In this document: positions 1-55,351 of the stretch, in pieces
Numbering within the stretch: the stretch's first letter is position 1
How the letters are laid out: each line of letters starts with the position of its first letter
Virus record (IMG/VR): IMGVR_UViG_3300034069_002177
Span: 138,738 to 202,737 of that record
Origin: a virus
Taxonomy: Duplodnaviria; Caudoviricetes
Length of the DNA stretch: 64,000 nucleotides
Reading direction: 5' to 3' (one strand)
Translations under genes and position numbers: made by a program
The notes under the pieces: model-generated
The model's database searches: none
What the model was told of the DNA's origin: nothing
Seen by the model: only the letters and a program-made list of their open reading frames with translations

Positions 1-282
1 GAACTGCGGTACGTCATTCCCAAGTCGGTAGCGAAGAAGCTCCAAGACTTGAAAATTCTCGCCGCGCAAGTGAGTAGAAATACCCCCGAAGATGCACCTT
101 CGAGACTAGCTAGCGCCGAGTTGGCTAGGTTGATGTTCGTTGAAAAGAGCAATGGAGCTACCTATCAAGAAATAGCCGAAGCTACCGGTTTGTCATCGTG
201 GGCTTCTGTAAAGTTCCGCCTGGGTCGTCACGGCTATATCAATCTCCCGCCGTCAATGGCGCACGAACGTATTCTCAGTTAG
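1..282 (+). CDS. Helix-turn-helix DNA-binding protein, 5'-truncated by the window edge
   Basis: Frame 1 is open from base 1 (ELRYVIPKSVAKKLQDLKIL...). HTH-like segment GATYQEIAEATGLSSWASVKFRL. Confidence 0.6.
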   Translation, partial: ELRYVIPKSVAKKLQDLKILAAQVSRNTPEDAPSRLASAELARLMFVEKSNGATYQEIAEATGLSSWASVKFRLGRHGYINLPPSMAHERILS

Positions 283-4396: not shown

Positions 4397-5132
4397 AGCC
4401 ATCGCGGCAATGATTGCCGTGTCATTTCTACTCACCGCCTGTTCAAGTAGCAAGCCGGAGCCAGTACCGACTGCCACCAAAACAGAGGCGGCAGTCGTGC
4501 GCCCCAATTACGACACTAGTGATAAAGCTTCGATTCCTTTCACCATCAATGGAACTGGCTCACGAGACATCAAAATCAACTTCCCTACTGGCTACAAGGA
4601 ACCGTCTCTAGTGACCCTAAGTAGTAATGGCGCTGTCGATGTAACAGAGCTAAACTATGACGGTGACAGTGTTGCGGATACCGTCAGTATTGATTCCGAC
4701 GAGGGTGGCTCCCAAACAGTCGCCAAATACCCCACAGCAGATACCCCCGCTCGAACTTCCAACTTCCACGTCGATGCCAAGGATGGAGTTGCATGGGCTA
4801 TCAGTGCGCAGTCATTGGGTTCCGTTCAGAAATTGTCCAGCCTCAGCGTTTCAGGTACCGAATCGCAAATCTTTATGCTCGATTCAAAGGCTAACGTTCT
4901 GGACTTCAAAACCATCGGTGATGGTTCGGCAACGGTCTACATCATTCCTCTTAAAGGCGATTCACCGGTATCGCTCGGTGGAGGTCAGGACACGGGCAAC
5001 TACAGAACGCCAGCCTCTTCATCTAACGCCAATCTTAAGAACTATGAAGGCTCGGTATTCGAGATTGTAGCGAACAACCCGGATACGCAGAGCTACCAAT
5101 TGATTTTCACACAGCAAAATCTTGACAACTAG
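4380..5132 (+). CDS. Lipoprotein (beta-rich), paralog of the previous gene
   Basis: Lipobox LLTAC, PNYDT versus PKYDT in the neighbour, DGVAWAISAQ, 17-bp overlap with the upstream gene. Confidence 0.8.
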   Translation: MKKLSKAIAAMIAVSFLLTACSSSKPEPVPTATKTEAAVVRPNYDTSDKASIPFTINGTGSRDIKINFPTGYKEPSLVTLSSNGAVDVTELNYDGDSVADTVSIDSDEGGSQTVAKYPTADTPARTSNFHVDAKDGVAWAISAQSLGSVQKLSSLSVSGTESQIFMLDSKANVLDFKTIGDGSATVYIIPLKGDSPVSLGGGQDTGNYRTPASSSNANLKNYEGSVFEIVANNPDTQSYQLIFTQQNLDN

Positions 5133-6207: not shown

Positions 6208-6250
6208 AACTAAATGGTCCCTGTAGAGATACAGGGACCATTTAGTTTTT
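6208..6250 (+). terminator. Intrinsic terminator
   Basis: Perfect 18-bp stem AACTAAATGGTCCCTGTA-GAGA-TACAGGGACCATTTAGTT followed by a T run. Confidence 0.85.
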
Positions 6251-10506: not shown

Positions 10507-12774
10507 GTGGCAAAGAAAGTAGCCTTTGTTGGATTTGGGGCAGTACAAGGTACTGACGCCCAGAGAGTGGCGAATGCATTAGGTGTTGAACCTGTTCAGC
10601 AGCTTGGATTCTTCGACTCAATCAACGATGCTGCACAATTCGTTGTAACCAAGGTGGACGGTAAAGTTACCGCCATCACTGGTTCCGAAGTGTATGTATC
10701 GGCTGAAGCTAGCGATGACACCATCTCTAAAGCACGACGTATTCGTTCTGTCGGAGTTGCTGTAAATTTGGACTGGGAGCCATTCAAGAATTCTCCTTAC
10801 TCCGAGAACGCATTGCGTTCATGGATTGATGATGGCGAATGGTCTGATGATTCTGCCAATGTAGACGCTAACACGCAGTTCGTCATGCCTTCGTACGTTG
10901 ATGATTCCGAAGAGCCAGAAAGTTACGTAGATACTCAGTATGCTCCGGTACCTGCTTCGGTTCCCCAAGCAGACCAGAATTACGGTTACGATACCAACGG
11001 CGAAGGTGCTTATGCCGAGCAGGCTGCACCTCAGTTCGAGGCACCTTCTGATGTCGCACCTCTCCCAATCATTCCTGTAGATCAGGGTGGATACACCTCT
11101 CCTGATTATTCACAGGACGGTTATGTTCAGGATGGATATGCCAATCAGAACGAAGAGCCGCAGTTTGACGCTGGAAACTATGTACCTGACTACGCAACCA
11201 ATGAAGTTGCTGCTCCTGATGCTCCCGTTTACGAAGAAGTGCCTATTTTCGATGGTGGGGTTCCTACCCCGGCTGAGGAACCGCGTTATGAACTAGAGGA
11301 TTCGCAGGAGCAAAGTGCCGCACCTGTTCCTATGGCGAGCTTCCTTACTGCTGGTCCGATTCCGGTACAGGAAGAAACGCCATATGAGTCTAATGACGGC
11401 TACTCCAATGACGGCTATGCTCAGCAGCCGGTTCCAGAATACAATCCTGGCAATGAGTACGCTTCGCAGGATTATGCTCAGCAAGAAACTCCTGACTACA
11501 ATCAGTACACTGCTGTCCCTGAAGAGCCCAGCTATGACGCTCCGCAGTATGGTAATGACGGTTATGCTGATGCTAACTCCTATCCTCAGGAGCCTCAGGA
11601 ATACGTTGACTACAATCAACTTCCAGAGCCTTCCTACGAACAGCAGCAGGAACCTCAAAGCTACACCACTCCTGAGCCGACTCCTGTGCCTCAGTACGTA
11701 CCGGAAGAGCGACCCGCATCTGCTCCTTCTGTAGGTGGATACACAGCGCCCACTCCTGGCTCGTCATTCATCCAGCAGTCTCCTACGCCAGCGCCGCCTA
11801 CTTCTCAGTACCAGCGTGAGCGTTCGATGTTTGATCAGGTTCCTGCTGGGGCAAACAATGACTTCGAAAGCCGCACTGGCGGAAAGATTGTCTACGTCAC
11901 CGGCTCGCACGGTGGTGCAGGTAAGACGACCACGGCTTGGACTTTGGCTTCGCTTGTTGCCGTTTCCATGAAGAAAGCTGGCAACGAAGACATCTCGGTA
12001 TGGCTCATCGAGTCTGATTACCGTAACTCGAAGCTCGCGCAGCGTCACAACATCGACCCCAACCGTACTTCCGGGCACCTCGCGTCGATGCTTGAATGGT
12101 TGAACGACCAGTCCGGTATCGTTGATGATCTTCCTGCGAAAAAGGCTCACGCTATTGCTCAGTCCACTCACCGCTTGGAAAATGGACTGAACATCATTGC
12201 CTGTCCTTACGACACAACGAAGCGTGATACCAAGTACATTCAGCAGGCTGTTTTCCAGGCTGCTCAGTACGCAAAGATGCAGGGTGGAATCGTCTTCATC
12301 GACGCCGACACCATCAGCAACGATGACATCATGGATTCTAAGCTTGCTAAGGCTGCCGACCGAGTTGTCATCGTCTCTGACGCTGGTACCGAGCACATTG
12401 ACGACCTCAAGAGGGCTGCACGCATTCTCACTACGCCCGTTATCAACGGCGGTCTTGGCGTATCGATGCCTGCAATTACTGTTCTTCTGAACAAGACCGG
12501 TCCTACCGAGTTCAAAAACGTCGAAGACAGTGGAATTTTGGCACCTTTGGCGCTAGGTGGATACCTACCGTTCATCCCAGAATGGGCAACTGGCTGGGTT
12601 GGTTCTTTGACAAATACTGAGACCTTCCAGAATGCTGTTGTTCTGTTCGCTCGCTTCTTCAATGGAATTGTTCCTTTGCAGGAACTCCACCAATGGCAGA
12701 ACTACCGCGCTACTGGAACCAGCAAGAAGGGCGGCGGAGGTTGGATTCGTCGCATCTTCTCTGGAAGAAAGTGA
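10507..12774 (+). CDS. ParA/MinD/CpaE-family ATPase with a long Tyr/Pro/Gln/Glu-rich linker
   Basis: Deviant Walker A GSHGGAGKTT, WLIESD, VFIDAD, ADRVVIV, VLLNK. Extended -10 TGC-TAAGCT at 10460-10468. Confidence 0.75.
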   Translation: MAKKVAFVGFGAVQGTDAQRVANALGVEPVQQLGFFDSINDAAQFVVTKVDGKVTAITGSEVYVSAEASDDTISKARRIRSVGVAVNLDWEPFKNSPYSENALRSWIDDGEWSDDSANVDANTQFVMPSYVDDSEEPESYVDTQYAPVPASVPQADQNYGYDTNGEGAYAEQAAPQFEAPSDVAPLPIIPVDQGGYTSPDYSQDGYVQDGYANQNEEPQFDAGNYVPDYATNEVAAPDAPVYEEVPIFDGGVPTPAEEPRYELEDSQEQSAAPVPMASFLTAGPIPVQEETPYESNDGYSNDGYAQQPVPEYNPGNEYASQDYAQQETPDYNQYTAVPEEPSYDAPQYGNDGYADANSYPQEPQEYVDYNQLPEPSYEQQQEPQSYTTPEPTPVPQYVPEERPASAPSVGGYTAPTPGSSFIQQSPTPAPPTSQYQRERSMFDQVPAGANNDFESRTGGKIVYVTGSHGGAGKTTTAWTLASLVAVSMKKAGNEDISVWLIESDYRNSKLAQRHNIDPNRTSGHLASMLEWLNDQSGIVDDLPAKKAHAIAQSTHRLENGLNIIACPYDTTKRDTKYIQQAVFQAAQYAKMQGGIVFIDADTISNDDIMDSKLAKAADRVVIVSDAGTEHIDDLKRAARILTTPVINGGLGVSMPAITVLLNKTGPTEFKNVEDSGILAPLALGGYLPFIPEWATGWVGSLTNTETFQNAVVLFARFFNGIVPLQELHQWQNYRATGTSKKGGGGWIRRIFSGRK

Positions 12775-12874
12775 AAATAATTTCACGAGTTTCTCGATAA
12801 TGAGATTCTAACCTGTGAATTTGCCTATAATTATGAATAGTCGTCCTATTGGTCTATTGAAAGGTGTATGACTC

Positions 12875-13210
12875 ATGTCAAATCTACTCGCTGCCGCTAA
12901 TTCTAGCGTAACCTCGTTTGCTGCTACGATCCCCACGTTCACGTGGACCCCTCCCCAGGGTCTCGTTGACGCATGTACAAAGGTTGGCTTCGTGCTTGCT
13001 GTTATTTGGGTGTTGTTCATCCTGTTCCAGTTCGCACTTCCTTCCAAGCAGGGTGGTGGACGTAAGCTTAGCCGTATCGGTGTCATGGGATTCTTGGGTG
13101 CTGGCGCACTCATCCTCTTGCTCTTCAACATTGCTTCTCTGCCAGCAATCATTAACTGGATCATCCAGGTAATCAACTACATCGCTGGTCTGTTCTCTAC
13201 TATTAAGTAA
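12875..13210 (+). CDS. Small two-TM protein, pilin/VirB2/TcpD-like
   Basis: 111 aa with two hydrophobic helices separated by a basic loop. Upstream TATAAT (12826-12831), downstream hairpin, TcpE-like neighbour. Confidence 0.55.
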   Translation: MSNLLAAANSSVTSFAATIPTFTWTPPQGLVDACTKVGFVLAVIWVLFILFQFALPSKQGGGRKLSRIGVMGFLGAGALILLLFNIASLPAIINWIIQVINYIAGLFSTIK

Positions 13211-13243: not shown

Positions 13244-13282
13244 GAAGGCGGCAATCGGTCAATTCGGCTGGTTGCCGCCTTC
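13244..13282 (+). terminator. Stem-loop after the pilin-like gene
   Basis: GAAGGCGGCAA...TTGCCGCCTTC: 11 Watson-Crick pairs extended by G-U pairs. Confidence 0.65.
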
Positions 13283-13322: not shown

Positions 13323-13949
13323 ATGGCATCATCATCTTCAACTCCAGAGTCTAGAGCACTCGCAAATGGCGTAATGAGTCTCAACTCTGTATTCGTTGTA
13401 CGCAACAAGAAAAGACGACTCTTCAAACGCTCTACCATCCGGCTCTCGCTTGCTGAAATGGTATGGATTGCCATTTCCACGCTCGGTCTCGGACTCATCA
13501 TCTTCGGTGTTATTCGGGGTGTATCGGGCATCCCTGGTCTTCGATCCGTCATCTCGTATTATCTGATGATCCTTGCACCTATCGGTGGTTTCATTATCGG
13601 TCGTCAAATTGCTCGCACAAGTCCCTACCGGCGATACAGCGGTGAGGGTCTCAACGAATACCTTTGGGTACAGCGTGACAAGATTGGTAAAGAAGTTGGG
13701 CGTGTATTCGGTCGAGGCGTCTCTATCACTCGATCAATGGCAACAGTTGACGGTAGAAAAATTCCCGTGAACTGTGTAGAGTGGCTCGGTACCTCCCGAG
13801 CGACATCTATGCCAAGACCCGTAAACAAGTTTTATTCGCCTTCTAGGAACGAGAAGGCTGACTTCGTGTACCTTAGTCTAGTACCGCGCACCGAGGCAAC
13901 AAATTGGTCTAAGCGTTACCAGCAAAAGCGCGCAAGAAACTGGGAGTGA
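13323..13949 (+). CDS. TcpE/VirB3-like conjugation membrane protein
   Basis: N-terminal SLNSVF..RLF..IRLSL, two TM helices and a basic C-terminus; position between pilin-like and VirB6-like genes. Confidence 0.55.
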   Translation: MASSSSTPESRALANGVMSLNSVFVVRNKKRRLFKRSTIRLSLAEMVWIAISTLGLGLIIFGVIRGVSGIPGLRSVISYYLMILAPIGGFIIGRQIARTSPYRRYSGEGLNEYLWVQRDKIGKEVGRVFGRGVSITRSMATVDGRKIPVNCVEWLGTSRATSMPRPVNKFYSPSRNEKADFVYLSLVPRTEATNWSKRYQQKRARNWE

Positions 13950-13952
13950 TTC

Positions 13953-16900
13953 GTGATTCGTAAGGTCTTAAGCGGAATCAGGCGTCACCGTCTTTTCGTT
14001 TACATGTTCGTGGCAGTAGCCGTTTTGGGTGTTGCCGTATCCGCCAGTCTTACCAGCGATCCCAGTCAATCAATGGCTGTCAACACGCCTGCGACAGTAA
14101 CTTCCGTGAACCATGTTGCCGCTGACTACTACCACAACTCGGTTGCTAATGCTGTTCAAAATGTGCAAGAAACTAGTGCATCCAGCTACAAGCAAGCGGC
14201 GGCATCTGATGGTCAATACAGCAGCGTACCGGCTCTTAAATCTCACCTACAGGGCGCAAACGCAACCAAATTGGACTCGCTCAATTACTTTGCGTTTTCT
14301 CGGTGGGCTACCGTCACGTTACTACCTGTTCCAGCCGTAGGTTTTGCCAATATCGGCTCACTAGTAGTCGCAGCATTTGTCTCTTTGGCTAATCTACTTT
14401 TCACTATCGGAGCTATCGTTCTCCTTGGTGTAGGTCTTTTGATGCTTCTGATTACCAGCATCAATCTTCTTACGGCATTTTTGCCTACCATCGACTGGTT
14501 CTTTGCTCAACTGGGAGGTCAGTGGCTTACCAACCCTAGCGGCGGTGGCGGAACCGGAACCATAGCCAGCAGCTTCCAGGGCGCTTCTCCATTTTTCATT
14601 GCCATATTCCTGATGGTCATTGCCGTCGCAATTCGGCTATCTCCATTAGCTAATAAGGACAGATCTCTTTTAGGTGACATCGTTATCTCTGCTGTAGCAA
14701 TTGCCGCACTCATGACGATTTCTACCGCATCTACAAAAGACTGGAACAACTCAAACAGCAATAAGGTAGACGCTATCAATGGGAATACAGGCTCCTCCAT
14801 CCCACTAGGATCCAATGTCGCCGCCTCACTTTCTGTCGATGGCGGAGATCCGTCTAATTATCAAAAAGCGTCCTTCGGCTGGTTCCTGGCTAATGGAAGC
14901 GATATTGTCGATGGCGCAGTCAACTTCGCTGGTGGTCTTATTACTTCCATTACCTCCGGTTTGGGCGCTATCTCCAATAGCGGCACTACCACCGCGCCTG
15001 CTGGTTCAAGCTGCTACAACTACCTCAACACTGGTATGCATGGCATCGCTTCAGATGTGCTTGAAAACAAAAAGGGTATTGCGTTCATTGGAAAGACCAG
15101 CACTCAATCGATTCTCTCCTTTGATAGCCTCGTTTACACCGTACTTTATCGACCAGCCGCTGAGGCTTCTTACGGAGCGAATGCCTCCGGCGATGCTACA
15201 TGGTGTCGTATGTGGGAATCTGCTCGTGGGTCGGACCCGGTAGATCAAGCTTATATCGCTCGAACTGCAAATATGTACTCAGACGCATTGAGTAACAATA
15301 CTGATGCCAAAGACGGCGGAGATGGCATTCTAAAGGTAGACGGCGGTTGGGCAGATTCTGACGGTGGAAACAATGCCGTGAATGGTCATGCCAAGCTCGC
15401 GGGATTCTTTGGAAACACCCTTTCTACGTCTAAGGGTACGACAGCGTTTAAGTTCTACTGGGCTGCATGTTCGTTTGAAGGCAATGGACGGGTAAAGGTT
15501 TCTTCCGCATTCACTAATGCCCTTGGTACAGCCAAGAAAGATGACGATTCACCAGATGGTAGCAAGGGCGACAAGCTGAGTGATGGTGACTGCCAAACTG
15601 TGCTTCAAACTGCGGATAGCAGCAGCGGCTACATTTTCGGTGCCAAAAACAAAGATAACGACTCCATGAAAAATCTGAGCCCCTTCGCTTGGACTCAGGA
15701 CGACAAATTGTTCACATTGTTCTTTATTGGATTCTCTGTTCCGGCAGATACCAGCACAGAACTCGCAAATGCTGACATGAATGGCTCGGAAGCCATCAAC
15801 TTCTTCAAGATGGTCTACGGTTCAAGCGCAGGAAACGTTTGGCCAGCCGCCATCGTTGCTGTTGTGGGTACCATTATGATGTCTATTGGTCTTCTTCCGA
15901 TGCAGGTTGGTGCATTGATCTTGCAGATGATTTCTGTTCTTTCTCTTATCGCCTTCCCCATTGTTCTGTTGGTGATGATTGTTCCTATCAGAGCGGGAAG
16001 AAAAGCATTCTTTACGATTCTCAAGCTATTCATTTCATCCAAGCTCGTACAGCTAATCTTCGTAACCTTCATCGCTATTGCTATCGCGATCATCAACCTT
16101 TTGACGATTGCGTTCGGTACCGTTCTCAATGTATCTCTCATCGGAGGAAACGCATTTACGGGAGATGGCACGCCACTCGGAACCTTCATTAAGGCTATTT
16201 TGAACGCAGTCGCCATCGGAATCGCTTTCTACGGAACCAAGAAGCTGCTTAGAGATGTCTTTAAGGCTGATGTCACGACCATCAAGGGTGCTATGTCCGT
16301 TGGTCAGAACATGGCTAGTACCGCCGTCAACGGTGGAGGCTTGCGCGAGATGGGTCTTGGGCAACTTAAGTCGCCAGTACGTGGTGGTGCCGCTGGTACG
16401 GGTGGTTTCGGAAATGCTAACCTTCCTGAAGGATTGGGCAAGAACACTGGTGCTGACAACGAGCCGCGTCAGCCTGAAATGCCCAAGCGTCAGGACGAAA
16501 AGCAGGCTCCTGAAGATCCCAAGCAGAAGCCCAATGAAACCGCAGAGGGTGCTGCTGGCTTGGCAGGTGGCATCGCTGGTGTTGCTGGTGGTGCATCAGG
16601 CGGAGCAGGAGGTAGTGCGCTTGGTGATGTCGCTGGTGGCGCAGTGGCTGGCGGGTTTGCAGGCGGCGCTCCTGGCGCTCTCGCGGGCGGTTCTATCGAG
16701 GTTCCTGCCGCCGCATCGAAGTCGATTCAAGGCACCGTTGGTGATGGCATGAAGAACGCTCCTACCGAGGGTCCGAATTCCAGAAACCCTGAAGCTCCCG
16801 TACCTAACGATCAGATGCTCACGGAAGAACAGCGTAAGGAAGCTGCCGAGAAGACTGAGGGTATCCGTAGCGTTTCTGGTATCAAATCCGAGGATGTGTC

Positions 16901-17846
16901 CAACGAGATTGGTAACCGCTCACGCAACACTGCTGCTCTCGAAAGTCAGTTGGATGATGGTGAACTCAACGGTGACGAAGAGCAGGTCCGTGATGCAGTC
17001 AACAAGCTTGGTGGAAGTTCTCACCTTGAAGGTTCGGCTGAGGAAGCCAAGGATTCGCCTGCTATTGAAGCAAGCCGTCGTGATTACTTCGATAACAACG
17101 TGGACAATGAAGAACGTCCCGTTGATCGTGGTGAGAAGGCTGGTGAAGGTAACGTTCATGCTGCAACTCTCGAACGTATTGCTCGGGCTACCGAAGAGCA
17201 GAACGAACGTGATGACAACACCGTTACGCCTGAGGGTTCCGTGCAGGTTGTTCCTGGTGAAGAGGATGGTCAGAATGCTCGCGACCAAGAAGTCCAAGGC
17301 AACAACATTCCCGGACTCGAAAGTACCGACGATGGTCGTGGCAACTCGCAACGCGGCGGTCAGCAGAACAATCAGCAGACCATTATTGCCGGGGCAGAGA
17401 GCGTACAGCCCACTGACACCAATGCAAACAACATTGGTCAGGTGGACAATAACGCCGCTCGTGCTGACAACTACAAGGCTGCAATTGGCTCCGAGTTCGA
17501 AGCTCCCGGAATGGCAGAAGATTCTTCTACCGCCAACTCTGGTAGCGCTGGACTTGGTAGTGAAGGTCTGAACCGCAGGCTGGACAGCCTTCCTGGTGAA
17601 ATTAGCCGTTCCATGCAAAACGTCATGGAGCCCGCCTTCGACCGATTCGATGCACTTGGTCGAACGGTACGCGAGTCGGCTGAGGTTCAAGAGGATGCGC
17701 TTCAGCGCAATACCGAGTCGAACGAACGTATCTCCGAGGCTCAGATTGCAAGCATGGAGAATCTTCAGCAGACAATTGCTAATTGGTTCCCTGACAGGGG
17801 TTCAGATAACAGCCCGAATAACAGCGCTGGTCCTACCTGGCGTTAG
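13953..17846 (+). CDS. VirB6/TcpH-like polytopic conjugation membrane protein with long disordered C-tail
   Basis: 1297 aa; several TM clusters around a large extracytoplasmic domain; Gly/Ala- and Glu/Asn-rich tail of about 500 aa. Confidence 0.65.
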   Translation: MIRKVLSGIRRHRLFVYMFVAVAVLGVAVSASLTSDPSQSMAVNTPATVTSVNHVAADYYHNSVANAVQNVQETSASSYKQAAASDGQYSSVPALKSHLQGANATKLDSLNYFAFSRWATVTLLPVPAVGFANIGSLVVAAFVSLANLLFTIGAIVLLGVGLLMLLITSINLLTAFLPTIDWFFAQLGGQWLTNPSGGGGTGTIASSFQGASPFFIAIFLMVIAVAIRLSPLANKDRSLLGDIVISAVAIAALMTISTASTKDWNNSNSNKVDAINGNTGSSIPLGSNVAASLSVDGGDPSNYQKASFGWFLANGSDIVDGAVNFAGGLITSITSGLGAISNSGTTTAPAGSSCYNYLNTGMHGIASDVLENKKGIAFIGKTSTQSILSFDSLVYTVLYRPAAEASYGANASGDATWCRMWESARGSDPVDQAYIARTANMYSDALSNNTDAKDGGDGILKVDGGWADSDGGNNAVNGHAKLAGFFGNTLSTSKGTTAFKFYWAACSFEGNGRVKVSSAFTNALGTAKKDDDSPDGSKGDKLSDGDCQTVLQTADSSSGYIFGAKNKDNDSMKNLSPFAWTQDDKLFTLFFIGFSVPADTSTELANADMNGSEAINFFKMVYGSSAGNVWPAAIVAVVGTIMMSIGLLPMQVGALILQMISVLSLIAFPIVLLVMIVPIRAGRKAFFTILKLFISSKLVQLIFVTFIAIAIAIINLLTIAFGTVLNVSLIGGNAFTGDGTPLGTFIKAILNAVAIGIAFYGTKKLLRDVFKADVTTIKGAMSVGQNMASTAVNGGGLREMGLGQLKSPVRGGAAGTGGFGNANLPEGLGKNTGADNEPRQPEMPKRQDEKQAPEDPKQKPNETAEGAAGLAGGIAGVAGGASGGAGGSALGDVAGGAVAGGFAGGAPGALAGGSIEVPAAASKSIQGTVGDGMKNAPTEGPNSRNPEAPVPNDQMLTEEQRKEAAEKTEGIRSVSGIKSEDVSNEIGNRSRNTAALESQLDDGELNGDEEQVRDAVNKLGGSSHLEGSAEEAKDSPAIEASRRDYFDNNVDNEERPVDRGEKAGEGNVHAATLERIARATEEQNERDDNTVTPEGSVQVVPGEEDGQNARDQEVQGNNIPGLESTDDGRGNSQRGGQQNNQQTIIAGAESVQPTDTNANNIGQVDNNAARADNYKAAIGSEFEAPGMAEDSSTANSGSAGLGSEGLNRRLDSLPGEISRSMQNVMEPAFDRFDALGRTVRESAEVQEDALQRNTESNERISEAQIASMENLQQTIANWFPDRGSDNSPNNSAGPTWR

Positions 17847-17854
17847 TAAGTCGG

Positions 17855-17883
17855 TTGCAAGTTCTCCTTCGTTGGTGTACCAT
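17855..17883 (+). promoter_or_regulatory. dnaX promoter nested in an inverted repeat
   Basis: TTGCAA(17855-17860)-17 bp-TACCAT(17878-17883). Confidence 0.55.
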
Positions 17884-17911
17884 CAGGTCGCAACGAAGGA
17901 GAACTTGCTTT
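17857..17911 (+). terminator. 18-bp perfect hairpin ending the transfer operon and covering the dnaX RBS
   Basis: GCAAGTTCTCCTTCGTTG(17857-17874), 16-nt loop, CAACGAAGGAGAACTTGC(17891-17908), then TTT. The right arm contains AAGGAG. Confidence 0.75.
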
Positions 17912-19643
17912 GACCAAATTCGCACTTGACGAAGAATCGCTCGATATCGACGATCAGGATGTCAACGAAAACGATTACGATGACACCACTAACGCTGATG
18001 GCACCACCGCTGTCGATGAGTCTGATTACGATGATGGTGATGACGCCGCTACCCAGAACGTAAATGAAGTAGTGGTAGAAATCAAGCCTAAGGTTGTAGA
18101 AGTCAAGAATCCTGTCGATACCGTAAAGGCAACCGAACCAGACTCCCCCTACGTCGTACTCTACCGCCGATTCCGCCCGCACAAGTTCTCTGAAATCATT
18201 GGTCAGGACAGCACGGTAAAGGCACTTCGTTCGGCAGTAATCAATCACAAGGCGGCGAACGTCTACCTGTTCTCAGGTGAGCGGGGCACGGGAAAGACCA
18301 CGACCGCCCGCGTTCTAGCTTCGGCATTGAACTGCCCCTTTGTACGCCCCGATGGCGAGCCTTGCGGGGTATGTGACCTCTGTGTCAATGTTCATGCTGG
18401 TAACGGCTCAGACGGCGTTACAGAGCTTGATGCGGCTAGCAATAGCTCGGTGGATGATGCCCGCCGCATCATCAATGAAATCCAGTTCGCTCATGGCTCC
18501 AAGAAGAACATCTACATCATTGATGAGGTACACCTTCTTTCCAAGCAGGCGAACGGAACGCTGCTGAAGACCCTCGAAGAGCCTCCTGCTAATGTCATCT
18601 TCATCCTGTGCACAACAAACCCCGAGCGTCTCGAACCGGCTGTTCGTTCCCGTGCTACCGCGTTCTCCTTCCACGAACTCGATGACACAACCATGCAGGG
18701 TCTCATCAAAGAGGTTGCTGCGGAAGCTGGCATCGAGGTAACGGACGAACAGATTGCGGGAGTTGTTCGTCGTGGACGAGGTTCGGCACGTGATGCCCTG
18801 AGTGCACTCGAAAGTCTTTCTCTGAACACCGATGTAGTCGTCGAGTACGACAACCATGCTTCGGCAATCACCAAGGCTGTCGGAGACAAGAGCGTATCTG
18901 ACATCATCATCGCAGTAGCCAAGGCAATCGATGGCGGTCTTAGCGTCAGTGAGATCGCTACCTCTCTGCTTGCTTATTGGCGTTCGATGATTCTTGTTCT
19001 GAATGCGCCCGAGATTGTCAAGCTGACCGATGCAGAGTTCGATTCGGTTCTCGACGTTGCTGAGAAAATGGGTACTGACAAAACAATCCACATGCTTCGT
19101 AAGTTAGGTGAAGCTCATGGCTCTTTGCTACAAGGAGATCCGCGAGTCATGATCGAAACCACGCTGATTCAGTTTGTTCTTCCGCACAATGATGCCGCCG
19201 CACTGCGCGACTTGAACCAGAAACTTGATTCGGTTGCTGGCGATGTGAGCGAGTTGCGTAAACGTCCCGCTAGTTCACCTTTCAATTCTGAGCCAGGTAC
19301 GAAAAAAGACAATTGGCTTGATGATTCGGAACCTAAAAAGGACACCAAGAAGGCAGATTCGGTAGTAGAGAATCCAGCAACTAAACCAGAAGAAAAGACG
19401 GCGGTAGCTGCGAGTTCTATCGAAATCATTTCTGACCCAGATGACCTTATCGATGCAATCTTCGAGAACGTTCCTAAGAAGGTACAGCTTTCACTTTCTG
19501 AGTTGGAAGTCGATACGAAGAATACGACTAGGAAACTTCTTGTTCTGAAGAGTCACAAGGGAATTACGGATGACGAATTTGAACTACTTGAAAAGGCAGT
19601 CGCCAAGGTTGATCCCCGCGAATTTGATTTGGATGAAGACTAG
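17910..19643 (+). CDS. dnaX: DNA polymerase III gamma/tau clamp-loader subunit
   Basis: LYRRFRPHKFSEIIGQ, Walker A GERGTGKTT, Zn module C...EPCGVCDLC, ELDAAS, IIDEVH, LLKTLEEP. Acidic N-terminal extension of about 70 aa. Confidence 0.95.
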   Translation: MTKFALDEESLDIDDQDVNENDYDDTTNADGTTAVDESDYDDGDDAATQNVNEVVVEIKPKVVEVKNPVDTVKATEPDSPYVVLYRRFRPHKFSEIIGQDSTVKALRSAVINHKAANVYLFSGERGTGKTTTARVLASALNCPFVRPDGEPCGVCDLCVNVHAGNGSDGVTELDAASNSSVDDARRIINEIQFAHGSKKNIYIIDEVHLLSKQANGTLLKTLEEPPANVIFILCTTNPERLEPAVRSRATAFSFHELDDTTMQGLIKEVAAEAGIEVTDEQIAGVVRRGRGSARDALSALESLSLNTDVVVEYDNHASAITKAVGDKSVSDIIIAVAKAIDGGLSVSEIATSLLAYWRSMILVLNAPEIVKLTDAEFDSVLDVAEKMGTDKTIHMLRKLGEAHGSLLQGDPRVMIETTLIQFVLPHNDAAALRDLNQKLDSVAGDVSELRKRPASSPFNSEPGTKKDNWLDDSEPKKDTKKADSVVENPATKPEEKTAVAASSIEIISDPDDLIDAIFENVPKKVQLSLSELEVDTKNTTRKLLVLKSHKGITDDEFELLEKAVAKVDPREFDLDED

Positions 19644-34245: not shown

Positions 34246-34280
34246 AGGGCGGGTAGCTAATAAGCTACCCGCCCTTCTTT
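34246..34280. terminator. Bidirectional terminator between convergent dnaE and dnaB
   Basis: AGGGCGGGTAGCT-AATA-AGCTACCCGCCCT, a perfect 13-bp stem followed by TCTTT. Confidence 0.8.
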
Positions 34281-41984: not shown

Positions 41985-42013
41985 TTGTGAGTTCTCGGGT
42001 TGCATGGTATTGT
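41985..42013 (+). promoter_or_regulatory. sbcD promoter
   Basis: TTGTGA-17 bp-TATTGT with extended -10 (TGG); same -35 as dnaE. Confidence 0.5.
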
Positions 42014-42033
42014 GTAACCCGAGAAAGGCAAGA

Positions 42034-43200
42034 ATGATCAAGATTATCGCTATCGCGGACCCGCATGTCGATGCTACCTCTATTGGAGGATTTGATAAGG
42101 ACAAGGGTATTCACTCGAACTGGGTAGAGTCCTTTGCTCGTCTGAATGACGCTATTGACGCAGCTAATGCGTGTGAAGCTCAGTTCTTCGTTGTGGCTGG
42201 TGACTTGTTCGATACCGGTAAGCCAACTGCTGAAGCTGTTGCGCTCGTTCGCGATGCCTTTCGTCGTCTTCATCCTGGTTGTATTGTCGTCATTATCGAC
42301 GGCAATCACGATCAGCAGACGGTCGTGGGTAATCAGCGCACCCCTGTTGCTGCTTACTTTGGAGATCTCAAAAATGTTGTGACTGCTTCCACTCCTGAAC
42401 TCATTGATATCGATGGAATGCAGTTCGCTCTAGCACCGTGGATTCGCGTAGCAGGCAAGTCGAAAGTTCGGAACATTAGCGACGAACTGAAAATGGTCGT
42501 GGAAGGTCTTTCGAACAAAGTAAAACCGGGACCGTCGATGTTCCTCGGTCACCTCGTGGTTGATGAATGCACATTCGACAATGGGATGGATAACCGTGGC
42601 TCTGAAATGAACATGGCTACTACCTTGCTGGAAGCCCACGTTCCCACCGAACTACTCGATGCAGGCGAATGGTCACTAGCGCGGCTGGGTCACATTCACA
42701 AGCGCCAGCAACTTTCGGCAAAAACCGGTTACATCGGTTCGCCCTATAAAGTTTCGTTCGGTGAATATCGCGAGTCGAAGGGTTACGACCTCATCACTAT
42801 TGACGACAAGAACAATTCTACTGTCACGTTCAAGGAACTAAAAGTCCGTAACCTCGTCAAGCTAGACCTCAGTTCAACTGGCGAAGACAGCATCACCGAT
42901 ATCGAAAAGGTGGGCGAACACGACATCGTTCGTCTTGTAGTTGATCACGATGGCGCTGATTCTTTGGACATCAAGAACGCTAAGGCGAGATTGGAGAAGC
43001 TTGGTATCTCTCATCAGATTTCTCGTCTGCCTCGACCCAAGCGTGATGCAATTTCTCGCGTGAATGGTGCCGCTGTTGACACGACCCCGGTCAGCGCACT
43101 GCTGTTGTACTTGGACAGACACGGTGTAACTGAGCTTGATGAGCGCGATGCGCTGGTTCATGAACTCAGTGCCATTCTCAACATGGTCGGGACTAAGTAA
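42034..43200 (+). CDS. sbcD: SbcD/Mre11-family nuclease subunit
   Basis: Metallophosphoesterase motifs ADPH, AGDLFD, GNHD, GH, LGHIH; YIGSP..VSFGE. Confidence 0.9.
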   Translation: MIKIIAIADPHVDATSIGGFDKDKGIHSNWVESFARLNDAIDAANACEAQFFVVAGDLFDTGKPTAEAVALVRDAFRRLHPGCIVVIIDGNHDQQTVVGNQRTPVAAYFGDLKNVVTASTPELIDIDGMQFALAPWIRVAGKSKVRNISDELKMVVEGLSNKVKPGPSMFLGHLVVDECTFDNGMDNRGSEMNMATTLLEAHVPTELLDAGEWSLARLGHIHKRQQLSAKTGYIGSPYKVSFGEYRESKGYDLITIDDKNNSTVTFKELKVRNLVKLDLSSTGEDSITDIEKVGEHDIVRLVVDHDGADSLDIKNAKARLEKLGISHQISRLPRPKRDAISRVNGAAVDTTPVSALLLYLDRHGVTELDERDALVHELSAILNMVGTK

Positions 43201-49109: not shown

Positions 49110-50243
49110 GTGGGAGTAGGTTCCGCCAAGTGCAAAAAAGATTCGTGTGCTCGTAGCACAACGGGTCTCTATTGCTGGCAGCACTGGTACCTCAATTACG
49201 CAGATACGGAAGAAAGTGCCCGTTCTGGTCGCCTCGAACGTCTCGCTCAGCAGCGGCATGACAAGGGTTCGCAATCTGATTCAACCGAATTCAAAGAGAC
49301 TCCTTTTTCTGGTGACACCACTCCAACTCAGATTTGGTCAGACACCAAAAAGGTGTTCATGGACATCCAAGATCAAATTGAACCGGAAGGTATCCGCAAC
49401 CAAGTCAGATCGTACGCCGAGGGTATCGCCACTACGGCTTCGCTTCGTTTTGCAAAGGATGAAAGACTCGAAGTAGACACTGATTTGCGAGACCGTCACA
49501 TCGAAGGATTCACTTCTGAAATTGTTGAAGGTCTTGTTCCTACCGGCGAGCTTGTAGCTCAGGAAGACGCTGAGTTCATTAGCGGCTCGGTTCCGGCTGA
49601 CGGGCTAGGTGGTTTTGCCGACTACGACGACGCTCGCGCGATCATTTCCTACGGTATTCGTAAAGAGTGGGAACTAGCTAATGCAGAACGCATCAAAGAA
49701 TCTGCTGATGAAATTCCCTATGACATTCCTTACGACAAGTTTCTTTCTGTCGTCTACAACAACGACATTGCGCCCCACCTCGTCGTAGCGACTCGTCGAG
49801 AAGCGAGCGACTTCCATAACAACGTCGTCATCGCTACAGGCAGCAAGGCGGCTAACCCAGCAGGAGTAAATCCCGTGGGTGCATTGCCGTCCCGTGCTGA
49901 GTCTGAACCGCTACACTCAGCCTACTTCGATGAAGCACGTGAATGGGTTGCTCAGAATCAAGCTGACCGCGATGCGCAAGCCAAGGCGCAAGCGGAAGCA
50001 GAAGCTATTGAAGCGGAACGCATCCAAGCACGCCAGGATGCCGTTGCCGGGGTACTCAATGGTGCGACTAACACAGTCAAGGGCGCGGTCAATCTCATTG
50101 GTACCACCACTGATGTCATGAACAAACTTTTCAAGACTCGACCCGAAGACACTCAAGCTCTTATCGAACGCAGAAACAAGCAAAATAGAGACATCTTCTT
50201 TGATATGGCTACCCGCCGATACCGCGACCGCAGAGGTCTTTGA
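49110..50243 (+). CDS. Hypothetical protein with N-terminal CCCH zinc knuckle
   Basis: GGAGG at 49100-49104 favours GTG 49110. C-x4-C-x8-C-x2-H (CKKDSCARSTTGLYCWQH). Confidence 0.8.
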   Translation: MGVGSAKCKKDSCARSTTGLYCWQHWYLNYADTEESARSGRLERLAQQRHDKGSQSDSTEFKETPFSGDTTPTQIWSDTKKVFMDIQDQIEPEGIRNQVRSYAEGIATTASLRFAKDERLEVDTDLRDRHIEGFTSEIVEGLVPTGELVAQEDAEFISGSVPADGLGGFADYDDARAIISYGIRKEWELANAERIKESADEIPYDIPYDKFLSVVYNNDIAPHLVVATRREASDFHNNVVIATGSKAANPAGVNPVGALPSRAESEPLHSAYFDEAREWVAQNQADRDAQAKAQAEAEAIEAERIQARQDAVAGVLNGATNTVKGAVNLIGTTTDVMNKLFKTRPEDTQALIERRNKQNRDIFFDMATRRYRDRRGL

Positions 50244-54139: not shown

Positions 54140-55351
54140 ATGAAGATTACAGCAGATCAGCAGGTCATCGATAAGAGCATCAAGGTAGTTGAAACCTATG
54201 CCGCCAAGGAAGGTTCGGGTGGTAGCATCAACAACCTTTCGTCCATCCTCATTAATGCGGATAAGGACACGAACACCGTCACGCTTACCGCCGAGAATGA
54301 ACTCTCTGCAACCCAGTATGTGATTTCCAGTGATGTCACCGTCGAAGAATCTGGTACCATCCTGGTGCCTGCCGCTCGACTAAAGATTGCTGTTTCGAAC
54401 GTAGCCGCAGGTGAAGAGGTCGAGTTGGAGGCAGATAACCTCAACCTCACCATTTCGTCAGGTCAGCGTAAACTTTCGCTTGGTCTTCTTGATGTGCATT
54501 CGACCCTTCTCCCTCGTATTGGTGAGACCGGTGATGCTTCTGCTGTATTCCAGTCTAGCGAGTTCGTCGCAGGCTTCAAGGGTGGTGCTTCGATTGCTGA
54601 TAACGGCAGTTCCAGCGTTTCCAGCAACGTGTACCTCGGTTTCGAGGGTAAGCGAGCACTTTTTGCCACCCGTATCGGTGCTGCTGTCAACCTCAAGTAC
54701 GTGGGCATTGAGAAGCTTGATGGCAGCATCGAGACTCTTGTCAACCGAAGCGCGCTCAACAACGCCATCGAGCAGATTGCTCAAGGGGATACCGTCGAGG
54801 TATCGCTAGCTGAGAACAAGAGTGACGTACATCTCGTTATCAAGGGCGAAGGCATCAATCGCCACATCCGTCTCGCCACTTCGGCGCACGATGTCAAGGC
54901 GTTCCAGGTTGACCTCATCAAGAACAACACCCTTTCCAGCGTCACTAAGTCGGTAGGCATCGTCACCGTCAACAAGCGTGACCTTATCGCCACCTTGCGG
55001 GCTGCTGACGCCATCGCCGCCCTCAACGGCAAGACGGAGGTTCGTGACATCAAGATTGCAGTAGCTAAGGGTGGTATCACCATCAGCGTCAAGGATCGCG
55101 CCGGGTTCGAGGATGTCGTTGATATCAAGAGCCTTGTGGGAGAGCCTGCATCGCTTCTGTTCCGCTGGAATCAGTTCACCAACCTGTTCGAGTCATACCC
55201 CGCAGACCGCGACGAACTCATCATCGCCTTCATCCCGCGTGAGGGTAACATCATCCGTTCTATCGCTCTAATCGATGATGAGAACTTCGCTCCCGGCGAT
55301 GACGCATCTAACCTGACTTATGTTGCTATGGCAGCCGCAAGTCAGCCGTAA
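54140..55351 (+). CDS. dnaN: DNA polymerase III beta sliding clamp (divergent)
   Basis: MKITAD..LSSILINA..VTLTAENEL..VEESGTILVPA; three-domain periodicity; about 400 aa. Confidence 0.85.
   Translation: MKITADQQVIDKSIKVVETYAAKEGSGGSINNLSSILINADKDTNTVTLTAENELSATQYVISSDVTVEESGTILVPAARLKIAVSNVAAGEEVELEADNLNLTISSGQRKLSLGLLDVHSTLLPRIGETGDASAVFQSSEFVAGFKGGASIADNGSSSVSSNVYLGFEGKRALFATRIGAAVNLKYVGIEKLDGSIETLVNRSALNNAIEQIAQGDTVEVSLAENKSDVHLVIKGEGINRHIRLATSAHDVKAFQVDLIKNNTLSSVTKSVGIVTVNKRDLIATLRAADAIAALNGKTEVRDIKIAVAKGGITISVKDRAGFEDVVDIKSLVGEPASLLFRWNQFTNLFESYPADRDELIIAFIPREGNIIRSIALIDDENFAPGDDASNLTYVAMAAASQP

Follow-up and report, generated by a model that had tools for sequence, protein, structure and literature searches.

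The window analysed here (64,000 nt) forms the end of an IMG/VR record of 202,737 bp that carries the label 'provirus' (IMGVR_UViG_3300034069_002177; the whole record is called G000 below), and we focus on the junction upstream of its dnaX-like clamp-loader gene. Coordinates are window positions unless prefixed G000 or G001, the latter being a syntenic 42-kb contig (IMGVR_UViG_3300022924_000103) that encodes a DnaX with 66% protein identity. A gap of 63 nt (17847-17909) lies between an open reading frame (ORF) for a membrane protein of 1297 amino acids (aa) and the 577-aa dnaX. Within this gap, a perfect 18-bp inverted repeat begins 10 nt past the stop codon of the ORF, and its right arm holds the dnaX ribosome-binding site (Table 1). 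The gene scores above the cut-off of TIGR02397 (284.4 bits versus 250) and matches Pfam DNA_pol3_delta2 (3.7e-32), and its TTG start is backed by an MTKF N terminus and a ribosome-binding site that are both kept in relatives. The original prediction for this stretch had named the gene as dnaX and had placed the repeat 10 nt after the stop, with AAGGAG in the right arm 8 nt before TTG; the gene assignment is confirmed and all of these coordinates hold.

A candidate housekeeping-type promoter, TTGCAA-17-TACCAT, would overlie the same DNA, with the left arm as its spacer and the -10 in the loop. RNA that arrives from the upstream membrane-protein gene would have both arms and would fold into the 18-bp hairpin (about 23 bp with inner pairs). 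This hairpin would bury the dnaX ribosome-binding site and, with the UUUG that follows it, would probably also halt part of the transcription, so that read-through RNA would yield little or no DnaX. The mRNA from the embedded promoter, with a predicted start near 17890, would lack the left arm and would be translatable from an open 20-nt leader that begins 1 nt before the right arm. We propose that the junction is an RNA-level insulator, in which read-through RNA hides the dnaX ribosome-binding site and the embedded promoter supplies an open mRNA, and we give this reading a probability of roughly 0.55. The analysis shows the arrangement of the sequence, its predicted folds, partial conservation in one relative and further copies of the layout in the genome; from there we infer that the promoter fires, where its transcript starts, that read-through occurs and that translation is affected.

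Table 1. Features of the junction upstream of dnaX and of similar leaders elsewhere in G000
Feature	Position	Strand	Remarks
Upstream multi-pass membrane ORF, 1297 aa	13953-17846	+	TAG stop 17844-17846; its transcript would read into the hairpin
Hexamer TTGCAA, -35-like	17855-17860	+	Final 4 bases are the first 4 of the left arm
Hairpin left arm GCAAGTTCTCCTTCGTTG	17857-17874	+	Fills the promoter spacer; contains CTCCTT, complementary to the ribosome-binding site
Hairpin loop, 16 nt	17875-17890	+	GTG, -10-like hexamer and 7-nt discriminator
Hexamer TACCAT (TANNNT type), -10-like	17878-17883	+	17 nt after TTGCAA
Predicted transcription start	17889-17891	+	Placed by spacing, about 7 nt past the -10; one base before the right arm
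Hairpin right arm CAACGAAGGAGAACTTGC	17891-17908	+	Includes the ribosome-binding site; 18/18 complementary to the left arm
Ribosome-binding site AAGGAG	17896-17901	+	Lies in the right arm; 8 nt separate it from the start codon
dnaX-like clamp-loader gene, 577 aa	17910-19643	+	TTG start at 17910; acidic N-terminal extension of about 80 aa
Copy at UvrD-like helicase gene (Pfam)	G000 54296-54352		TTGCAA-17-TATGAT, TG before the -10; scan lists it at 9/12
Copy at DsbA-like gene, looser	G000 49779-49838		TTGCTG-17-TACGAT within a CCTCC...GGAGG hairpin, after a separate canonical terminator
Copy at SbcD-like gene, looser	41985-42036	+	TTGTGA-17-TATTGT; ATG at 42034

The inverted repeat is the longest in the window. 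By our own estimate, a perfect 18-bp repeat with a loop of 3-30 nt is expected about 3e-5 times in 64 kb. The predicted RNA fold of 17850-17912 has an energy of -36.1 kcal/mol (z = -8.0), and the same hairpin in a 101-nt context reaches -43.6 kcal/mol (z = -5.3). Among 190 gene leaders of the 202-kb record, that of dnaX is the most structured (-40.2 versus a mean of -13.8, s.d. 5.1). Inner pairs in the predicted fold shrink the 16-nt loop to a 4-nt apical loop, which is how the stem comes to about 23 bp. A search for known Rfam families matched none, returning chance hairpin hits (E values of 0.4-0.7) far under the gathering scores.

We compared the mean unpaired probability of the ribosome-binding site in a 160-nt read-through RNA with that in an RNA begun 7 nt past the -10. 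For dnaX, the value is 0.000 in the read-through RNA and 0.383 in the promoter transcript. The modelling supports a hairpin that would form only on RNA with the left arm and would then bury the ribosome-binding site fully. Because the left arm begins 10 nt past the stop codon, a ribosome terminating there would, by our own estimate, melt only the first few pairs of the hairpin. Translational coupling to the upstream ORF was also considered and was rejected, as stop and start are 63 nt apart.

We sought further copies by a stem search over the whole 202-kb record. The closest precedes the gene for a UvrD-like helicase, where a perfect 16-bp stem fills the promoter spacer and a 14-nt loop consists of the -10 and the 7 nt after it. 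Its right arm starts with CAAC and holds GGGAG, a GTG lies 2 nt past the stem, and the whole occupies a 61-nt gap after the upstream stop (fold of -35.7 kcal/mol, z -6.4); the modelled accessibility is 0.000 in read-through RNA and 0.562 in the promoter transcript. Loop length singles out the dnaX (16 nt) and UvrD-like (14 nt) hairpins among long stems, as canonical terminators have loops of 3-12 nt, and loops of 14-16 nt are what housing a -10 and a discriminator requires. In the UvrD-like leader (G000 54290-54347; L092:4291-4348), CCCGAGTTG is present twice, over the -35 and just before the -10, so that the one right arm could pair with either of two left partners, perhaps a relic of a shift in the register of the stem.

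Two looser copies precede genes for DsbA-like and SbcD-like proteins. The DsbA-like copy follows a terminator of its own, and occlusion there is thus not a mere by-product of a terminator squeezed into a short gap; its ribosome-binding site has a modelled accessibility of 0.110 in read-through RNA and 0.785 in the promoter transcript. The SbcD-like copy has a stem of 13-15 bp including a G-U pair (41992-42004 with 42013-42025), the right arm of which continues into GAGAAAGG. Its fold (-29.6 kcal/mol, z -5.0) is stronger on the sense strand than on the antisense strand (-24.3 versus -15.6), and occlusion is only partial (0.598 versus 0.863). A fifth candidate, at G000 60935, was rejected: its minimum-energy fold pairs GGAGA with TCTCC, but the ensemble leaves the ribosome-binding site 0.82 unpaired. 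When start codons are picked automatically, 12 leaders are structured and have a paired binding site, just 2 of these carry the motif, and the starts of the UvrD-like and SbcD-like genes are placed wrongly; we therefore claim no formal enrichment. Elsewhere in the record (G000 104466-104524), a 16-bp stem with a 27-nt loop (CGGTTGCGGGTTTAGT ... GCTAGACCCGCAACTG) again has GGTTGC/GCAAC ends and lies about 50 nt before a gene at 104575.

The device is thus plausible and recurrent from its sequence features, and it is not specific to dnaX. The original prediction had given it a dedicated purpose, the uncoupling of clamp-loader dose from transfer induction, which is not supported as specific to dnaX given the same device before the UvrD-like, DsbA-like and SbcD-like genes.

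Comparison with G001 shows uneven identity across the dnaX gap. The -35 hexamer is identical at 4 of 6 positions (TTGC is kept; G001 has TTGCGT) and the -10 hexamer at 5 of 6, and the last five spacer bases together with the -10 (TGGTGTACYAT) are identical at 10 of 11. The leader from CAAC to the start codon is likewise conserved (17/19), whereas the whole spacer (9/17) and the discriminator (3/7) are not. This pattern is promoter-like, resembling the footprint expected of a promoter and a translation-initiation region. In G001 dnaX and in the UvrD-like copy, the -10 is followed by 7 nt and then CAAC. At the corresponding sites (17891-17894, L003 5898-5901, G000 54332-54335 and 49822-49825), the GCAA pairs with the TTGC of the -35 in two cases.

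G001 is unable to form the dnaX stem of the window and has a hairpin of its own at the same junction (-36.4 kcal/mol, z -4.6); only three stems of the 42-kb contig are stronger. In this hairpin, GCGCAA is the partner of the -35 region, the right arm contains the -10, and an upstream CTCT pairs with GGAG; a bulge breaks the stem. Owing to two G-U pairs, the sense strand exceeds the antisense strand in stability by 7.6 kcal/mol (-27.5 versus -19.9). The modelled accessibility of the ribosome-binding site is 0.182 in read-through RNA and 0.656 in the promoter transcript. Structure and binding-site occlusion are therefore kept with different bases, which argues for selection at the RNA level and against a DNA operator. 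The two dnaX hairpins are a small natural example of a structure conserved through sequence turnover.

Searches for other relatives added little to this comparison. G001 was the sole relative contig in scans of IMG/VR and JGI metagenomes, and PLSDB and INPHARED held nothing close. A scan of GTDB and of 401 genomes from the order of an Acidimicrobiaceae metagenome-assembled genome (G002) returned chromosomal dnaX genes of at most 45% identity, or nothing. The UvrD-like gene has no relative in IMG/VR, and a relative of the SbcD-like gene (L094, 47% identity) is without such a leader.

The candidate promoter is supported by its retention in G001 and by the recurrence of the layout in G000. Its hexamers are placed where a transcript would start inside the hairpin, and they recur at the UvrD-like gene. 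Several points weigh against the insulator. Only 8 of the 12 positions in the dnaX hexamers agree with the Escherichia coli consensus, and a consensus scan omits them. The window has one occurrence of the motif TTGCAA-N17-TANNNT, where 0.39 are expected, and 33 of 100 shuffles have one or more; a looser form (TTGNNN-16..18-TANNNT) precedes 21 of 175 other genes (12%). TTGCAA-17-TACCAT is not significant on its own. Even in the dnaX promoter transcript, the ribosome-binding site is just 38% unpaired in the model. The choice of leaders counted as copies was partly made after viewing them, and the comparative evidence consists of one relative contig. In that contig, the SbcD-like leader keeps the promoter and has no hairpin, and the hairpin part of the device is thus evolutionarily labile and can be lost. 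The coordinates given earlier for the promoter hexamers hold, and these hexamers persist in G001. The earlier claim that read-through RNA hides the binding site and that internal-promoter RNA frees it agrees with the recurrent geometry and with the modelled values, which leave the site largely open on the shorter RNA.

The strongest alternative reads the hairpin simply as the intrinsic terminator of the transcription unit at 13323-17846, overlapping the next promoter and binding site in the 63-nt gap, with occlusion as an incidental result. In that case few transcripts would pass and occlusion would matter little. We consider this unlikely, but it has several features on its side, and it too counts against an insulator. 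The stem (18 bp, 50% G+C, -36 kcal/mol) is of the stable, G+C-containing kind found in intrinsic terminators; junctions of the element consist, as a rule, of a terminator with a -10 box behind it, and there is no other terminator between 17846 and dnaX. Like the canonical terminators of the element (for example, 6208-6247, 13244-13282 and 34246-34275), the dnaX hairpin is a stable long stem right after a stop codon, with the next promoter or gene starting a few bases on. The stem is followed by UUUG, the tail becomes UUGCUUUG if the lowest 4 pairs open, and the UvrD-like stem has the A-rich and U-rich ends of canonical terminators.

The details fit a terminator less well. These canonical terminators have loops of 4-9 nt and A-rich and U-rich flanks and exclude the next ribosome-binding site, whereas the dnaX hairpin is missing from the terminator scan list and has a 16-nt loop, against 3-12 nt in other long stems. 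We found no short loop with a U tract of at least 5 in 8 after the stem: the dnaX tail UUUGACCA reaches 5/8 only with four basal pairs open, and it has 5 T in 12, against 6-8 in other long stems. The DsbA-like copy has a canonical terminator plus a distinct hairpin over the binding site, and the strong stem of G001 ends at least 8 nt before a U run. Two of the canonical terminators, 13244-13282 and 6208-6247, are kept in G001 (11502-11542 and 4531-4572) via compensatory changes, with a conserved -10 box after each; three double changes are seen in the 13244-13282 terminator (GAAGGCGGCAA/TTGCCGCCTTC versus GAGGGTGGTAA/TTACCACCCTC).

Two further explanations are less likely than a terminator. 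The long, near-perfect double-stranded RNA (18 bp plus 5 inner pairs) could be an RNase III site that separates the upstream mRNA from that of dnaX, freeing or destroying the binding site. RNase III processing is established at intercistronic sites of T7 and in the lambda N leader, and the dnaX stem is intercistronic and near two helical turns in length. We regard this as improbable, as the SbcD-like stem (just 13-15 bp) and the bulged G001 dnaX hairpin are short for RNase III, and cleavage would leave the conserved hexamers and the predicted start at the right-arm boundary unexplained. Least probable is an action of the inverted repeat at the DNA level, with its arms on either side of the -10 as the operator of a dimeric repressor, or with a cruciform closing the promoter. 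The palindrome is perfect and overlaps the promoter, and TnCTCCnnnGTTG is common to the left arm at dnaX and that at the UvrD-like gene, but these bases are explained as the complement of the ribosome-binding site. The half-sites lie 34 bp apart centre to centre, the G001 orthologue pairs different bases in a shifted register without keeping the half-site, and, owing to G-U pairs, the sense RNA of G001 dnaX and of the SbcD-like copy is more stable than the antisense strand by 7-9 kcal/mol. An Frpo-like single-stranded-DNA promoter was rejected on our own geometric reasoning, as an 18-bp stem is too short for both the -35 and the -10, and as a template-strand hairpin would be without the non-template -10.

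Returning to the RNA-level insulator, we suggest more tentatively that promoter-in-hairpin cassettes serve as a general and evolvable means of insulation in this giant plasmid-like element and perhaps throughout its family of such replicons, which appear to be actinobacterial; such a genome-wide design rule, unlike the phage-timing device of T4, is possible but doubtful. Under such a rule, the spacer of a housekeeping promoter would have been recruited repeatedly, in shifting registers, to pair with the ribosome-binding site, and each gene would be translated from its own promoter only, whatever the transcription upstream. If the device works as modelled, then the element's replication and repair genes (dnaX and those for the UvrD-like helicase and the SbcD-like nuclease) would be shielded, in both transcription and translation, from read-through of neighbouring modules. 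It would also be a very compact natural part with which to test insulation, its 63 nt combining a promoter and a ribosome-binding site with a terminator or occluder.

This type of mechanism is already known from T4, and the junction described here would be a further instance, with an ordinary -35/-10 promoter in a plasmid-like element. In T4 (e, soc, 49, I-TevI, I-TevII, I-TevIII and segB) and Aeh1 (mobE), a ribosome-binding-site hairpin contains an internal late promoter (PMC3014915, PMC2988022). For e, soc, 49 and I-TevI of T4, this logic has experimental precedent: long upstream transcripts sequester the binding site, and a promoter in the DNA for the 5' strand of the helix yields translatable RNA (PMC3014915, PMC2988022). 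As in T4, the binding site lies in a helix on upstream transcripts (here by predicted folds and pairing probabilities), and the device is found at several genes within a genome. The T4 promoter, however, is of the late type (TATAAATA), depends on the phage sigma factor gp55 and exerts temporal control, whereas the candidate promoter here is a -35/-10 one of the housekeeping kind, and nothing points to a temporal switch. The T4 late promoter TATAAATA is absent from 17847-17909, which makes the dnaX junction an analogue of the T4 device in mechanism, outside any T4-like late regulon. In further contrast to T4, the host replicon is a plasmid-like, apparently actinobacterial element, the genes concern replication, repair and redox functions, and the device is known here from its sequence.

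A second parallel is found in transposons. Davis, Simons and Kleckner reportedly described, in 1985, a fold-back inhibition of outside read-through in IS10. IS200 is protected against impinging transcription by a stem-loop over the ribosome-binding site and a terminator-like hairpin (PMC3196728). As in IS10 and IS200, a stem-loop on read-through RNA would occlude the binding site and the gene's own promoter would start inside the structure. In those elements, the arms are transposon ends that protect a transposase gene, whereas here they are a promoter spacer and a leader between co-directional ordinary genes. We found no transposon terminal repeats as the source of the arms at this junction, which is flanked by two ordinary genes in synteny with G001. 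If the proposed mechanism is true, an uncultured giant mobile element would have arrived on its own, by means of ordinary sigma-70-type promoters, at the solution of T4 and IS10 to unwanted translation of read-through RNA.

No HK97 capsid or TerL profile matched in the record, which encodes a VirB4-like ATPase (AAA_10, 1.6e-12), an FtsK-like protein and a full replication set (NAD-dependent ligase, DnaE, DnaB and DnaX). These features make it resemble a giant plasmid or conjugative element, apparently an actinobacterial one, more closely than the provirus of its label. The exact DnaX protein is also recorded on a 654-kb contig, and the 202-kb record may thus be part of a larger replicon. The upstream ORF had been called virB6-like, a name that we do not retain: the 1297-aa protein matches no Pfam or NCBIfam family, the TrbL/VirB6 profile PF04610 has no match in the record at E <= 1, and a weak Atlas lead (score of 0.88) points to a cluster with TrbL in 42% of its members. 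The associated idea of insulation from a conjugation operon is only partly supported: the names 'conjugation operon' and VirB6 have a weak basis, and the genes upstream are already split into several terminator-plus-promoter units.

Family members of the element-type DnaX (P0004-P0007) show 50-63% identity. The element-type proteins (P0001 and P0003-P0007) have in common an acidic N-terminal extension of about 80 aa (residues 1-80; 17910-18150), which is probably disordered, and a conserved C-terminal block. Both are absent from the chromosomal DnaX of Acidimicrobiales (40-45% identical).

Another leader in the window, that of a 111-aa ORF (12875-13210), is also conserved. Approximately 100 nt of it (12775-12874; L003 ~1290-1400), including TTGCCTATAAT, are about 95% identical between G000 and G001, and the neighbouring coding DNA is far more diverged (the DnaX proteins are 66% identical). 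From its sequence conservation, this stretch looks like a strongly constrained regulatory leader or a small RNA.

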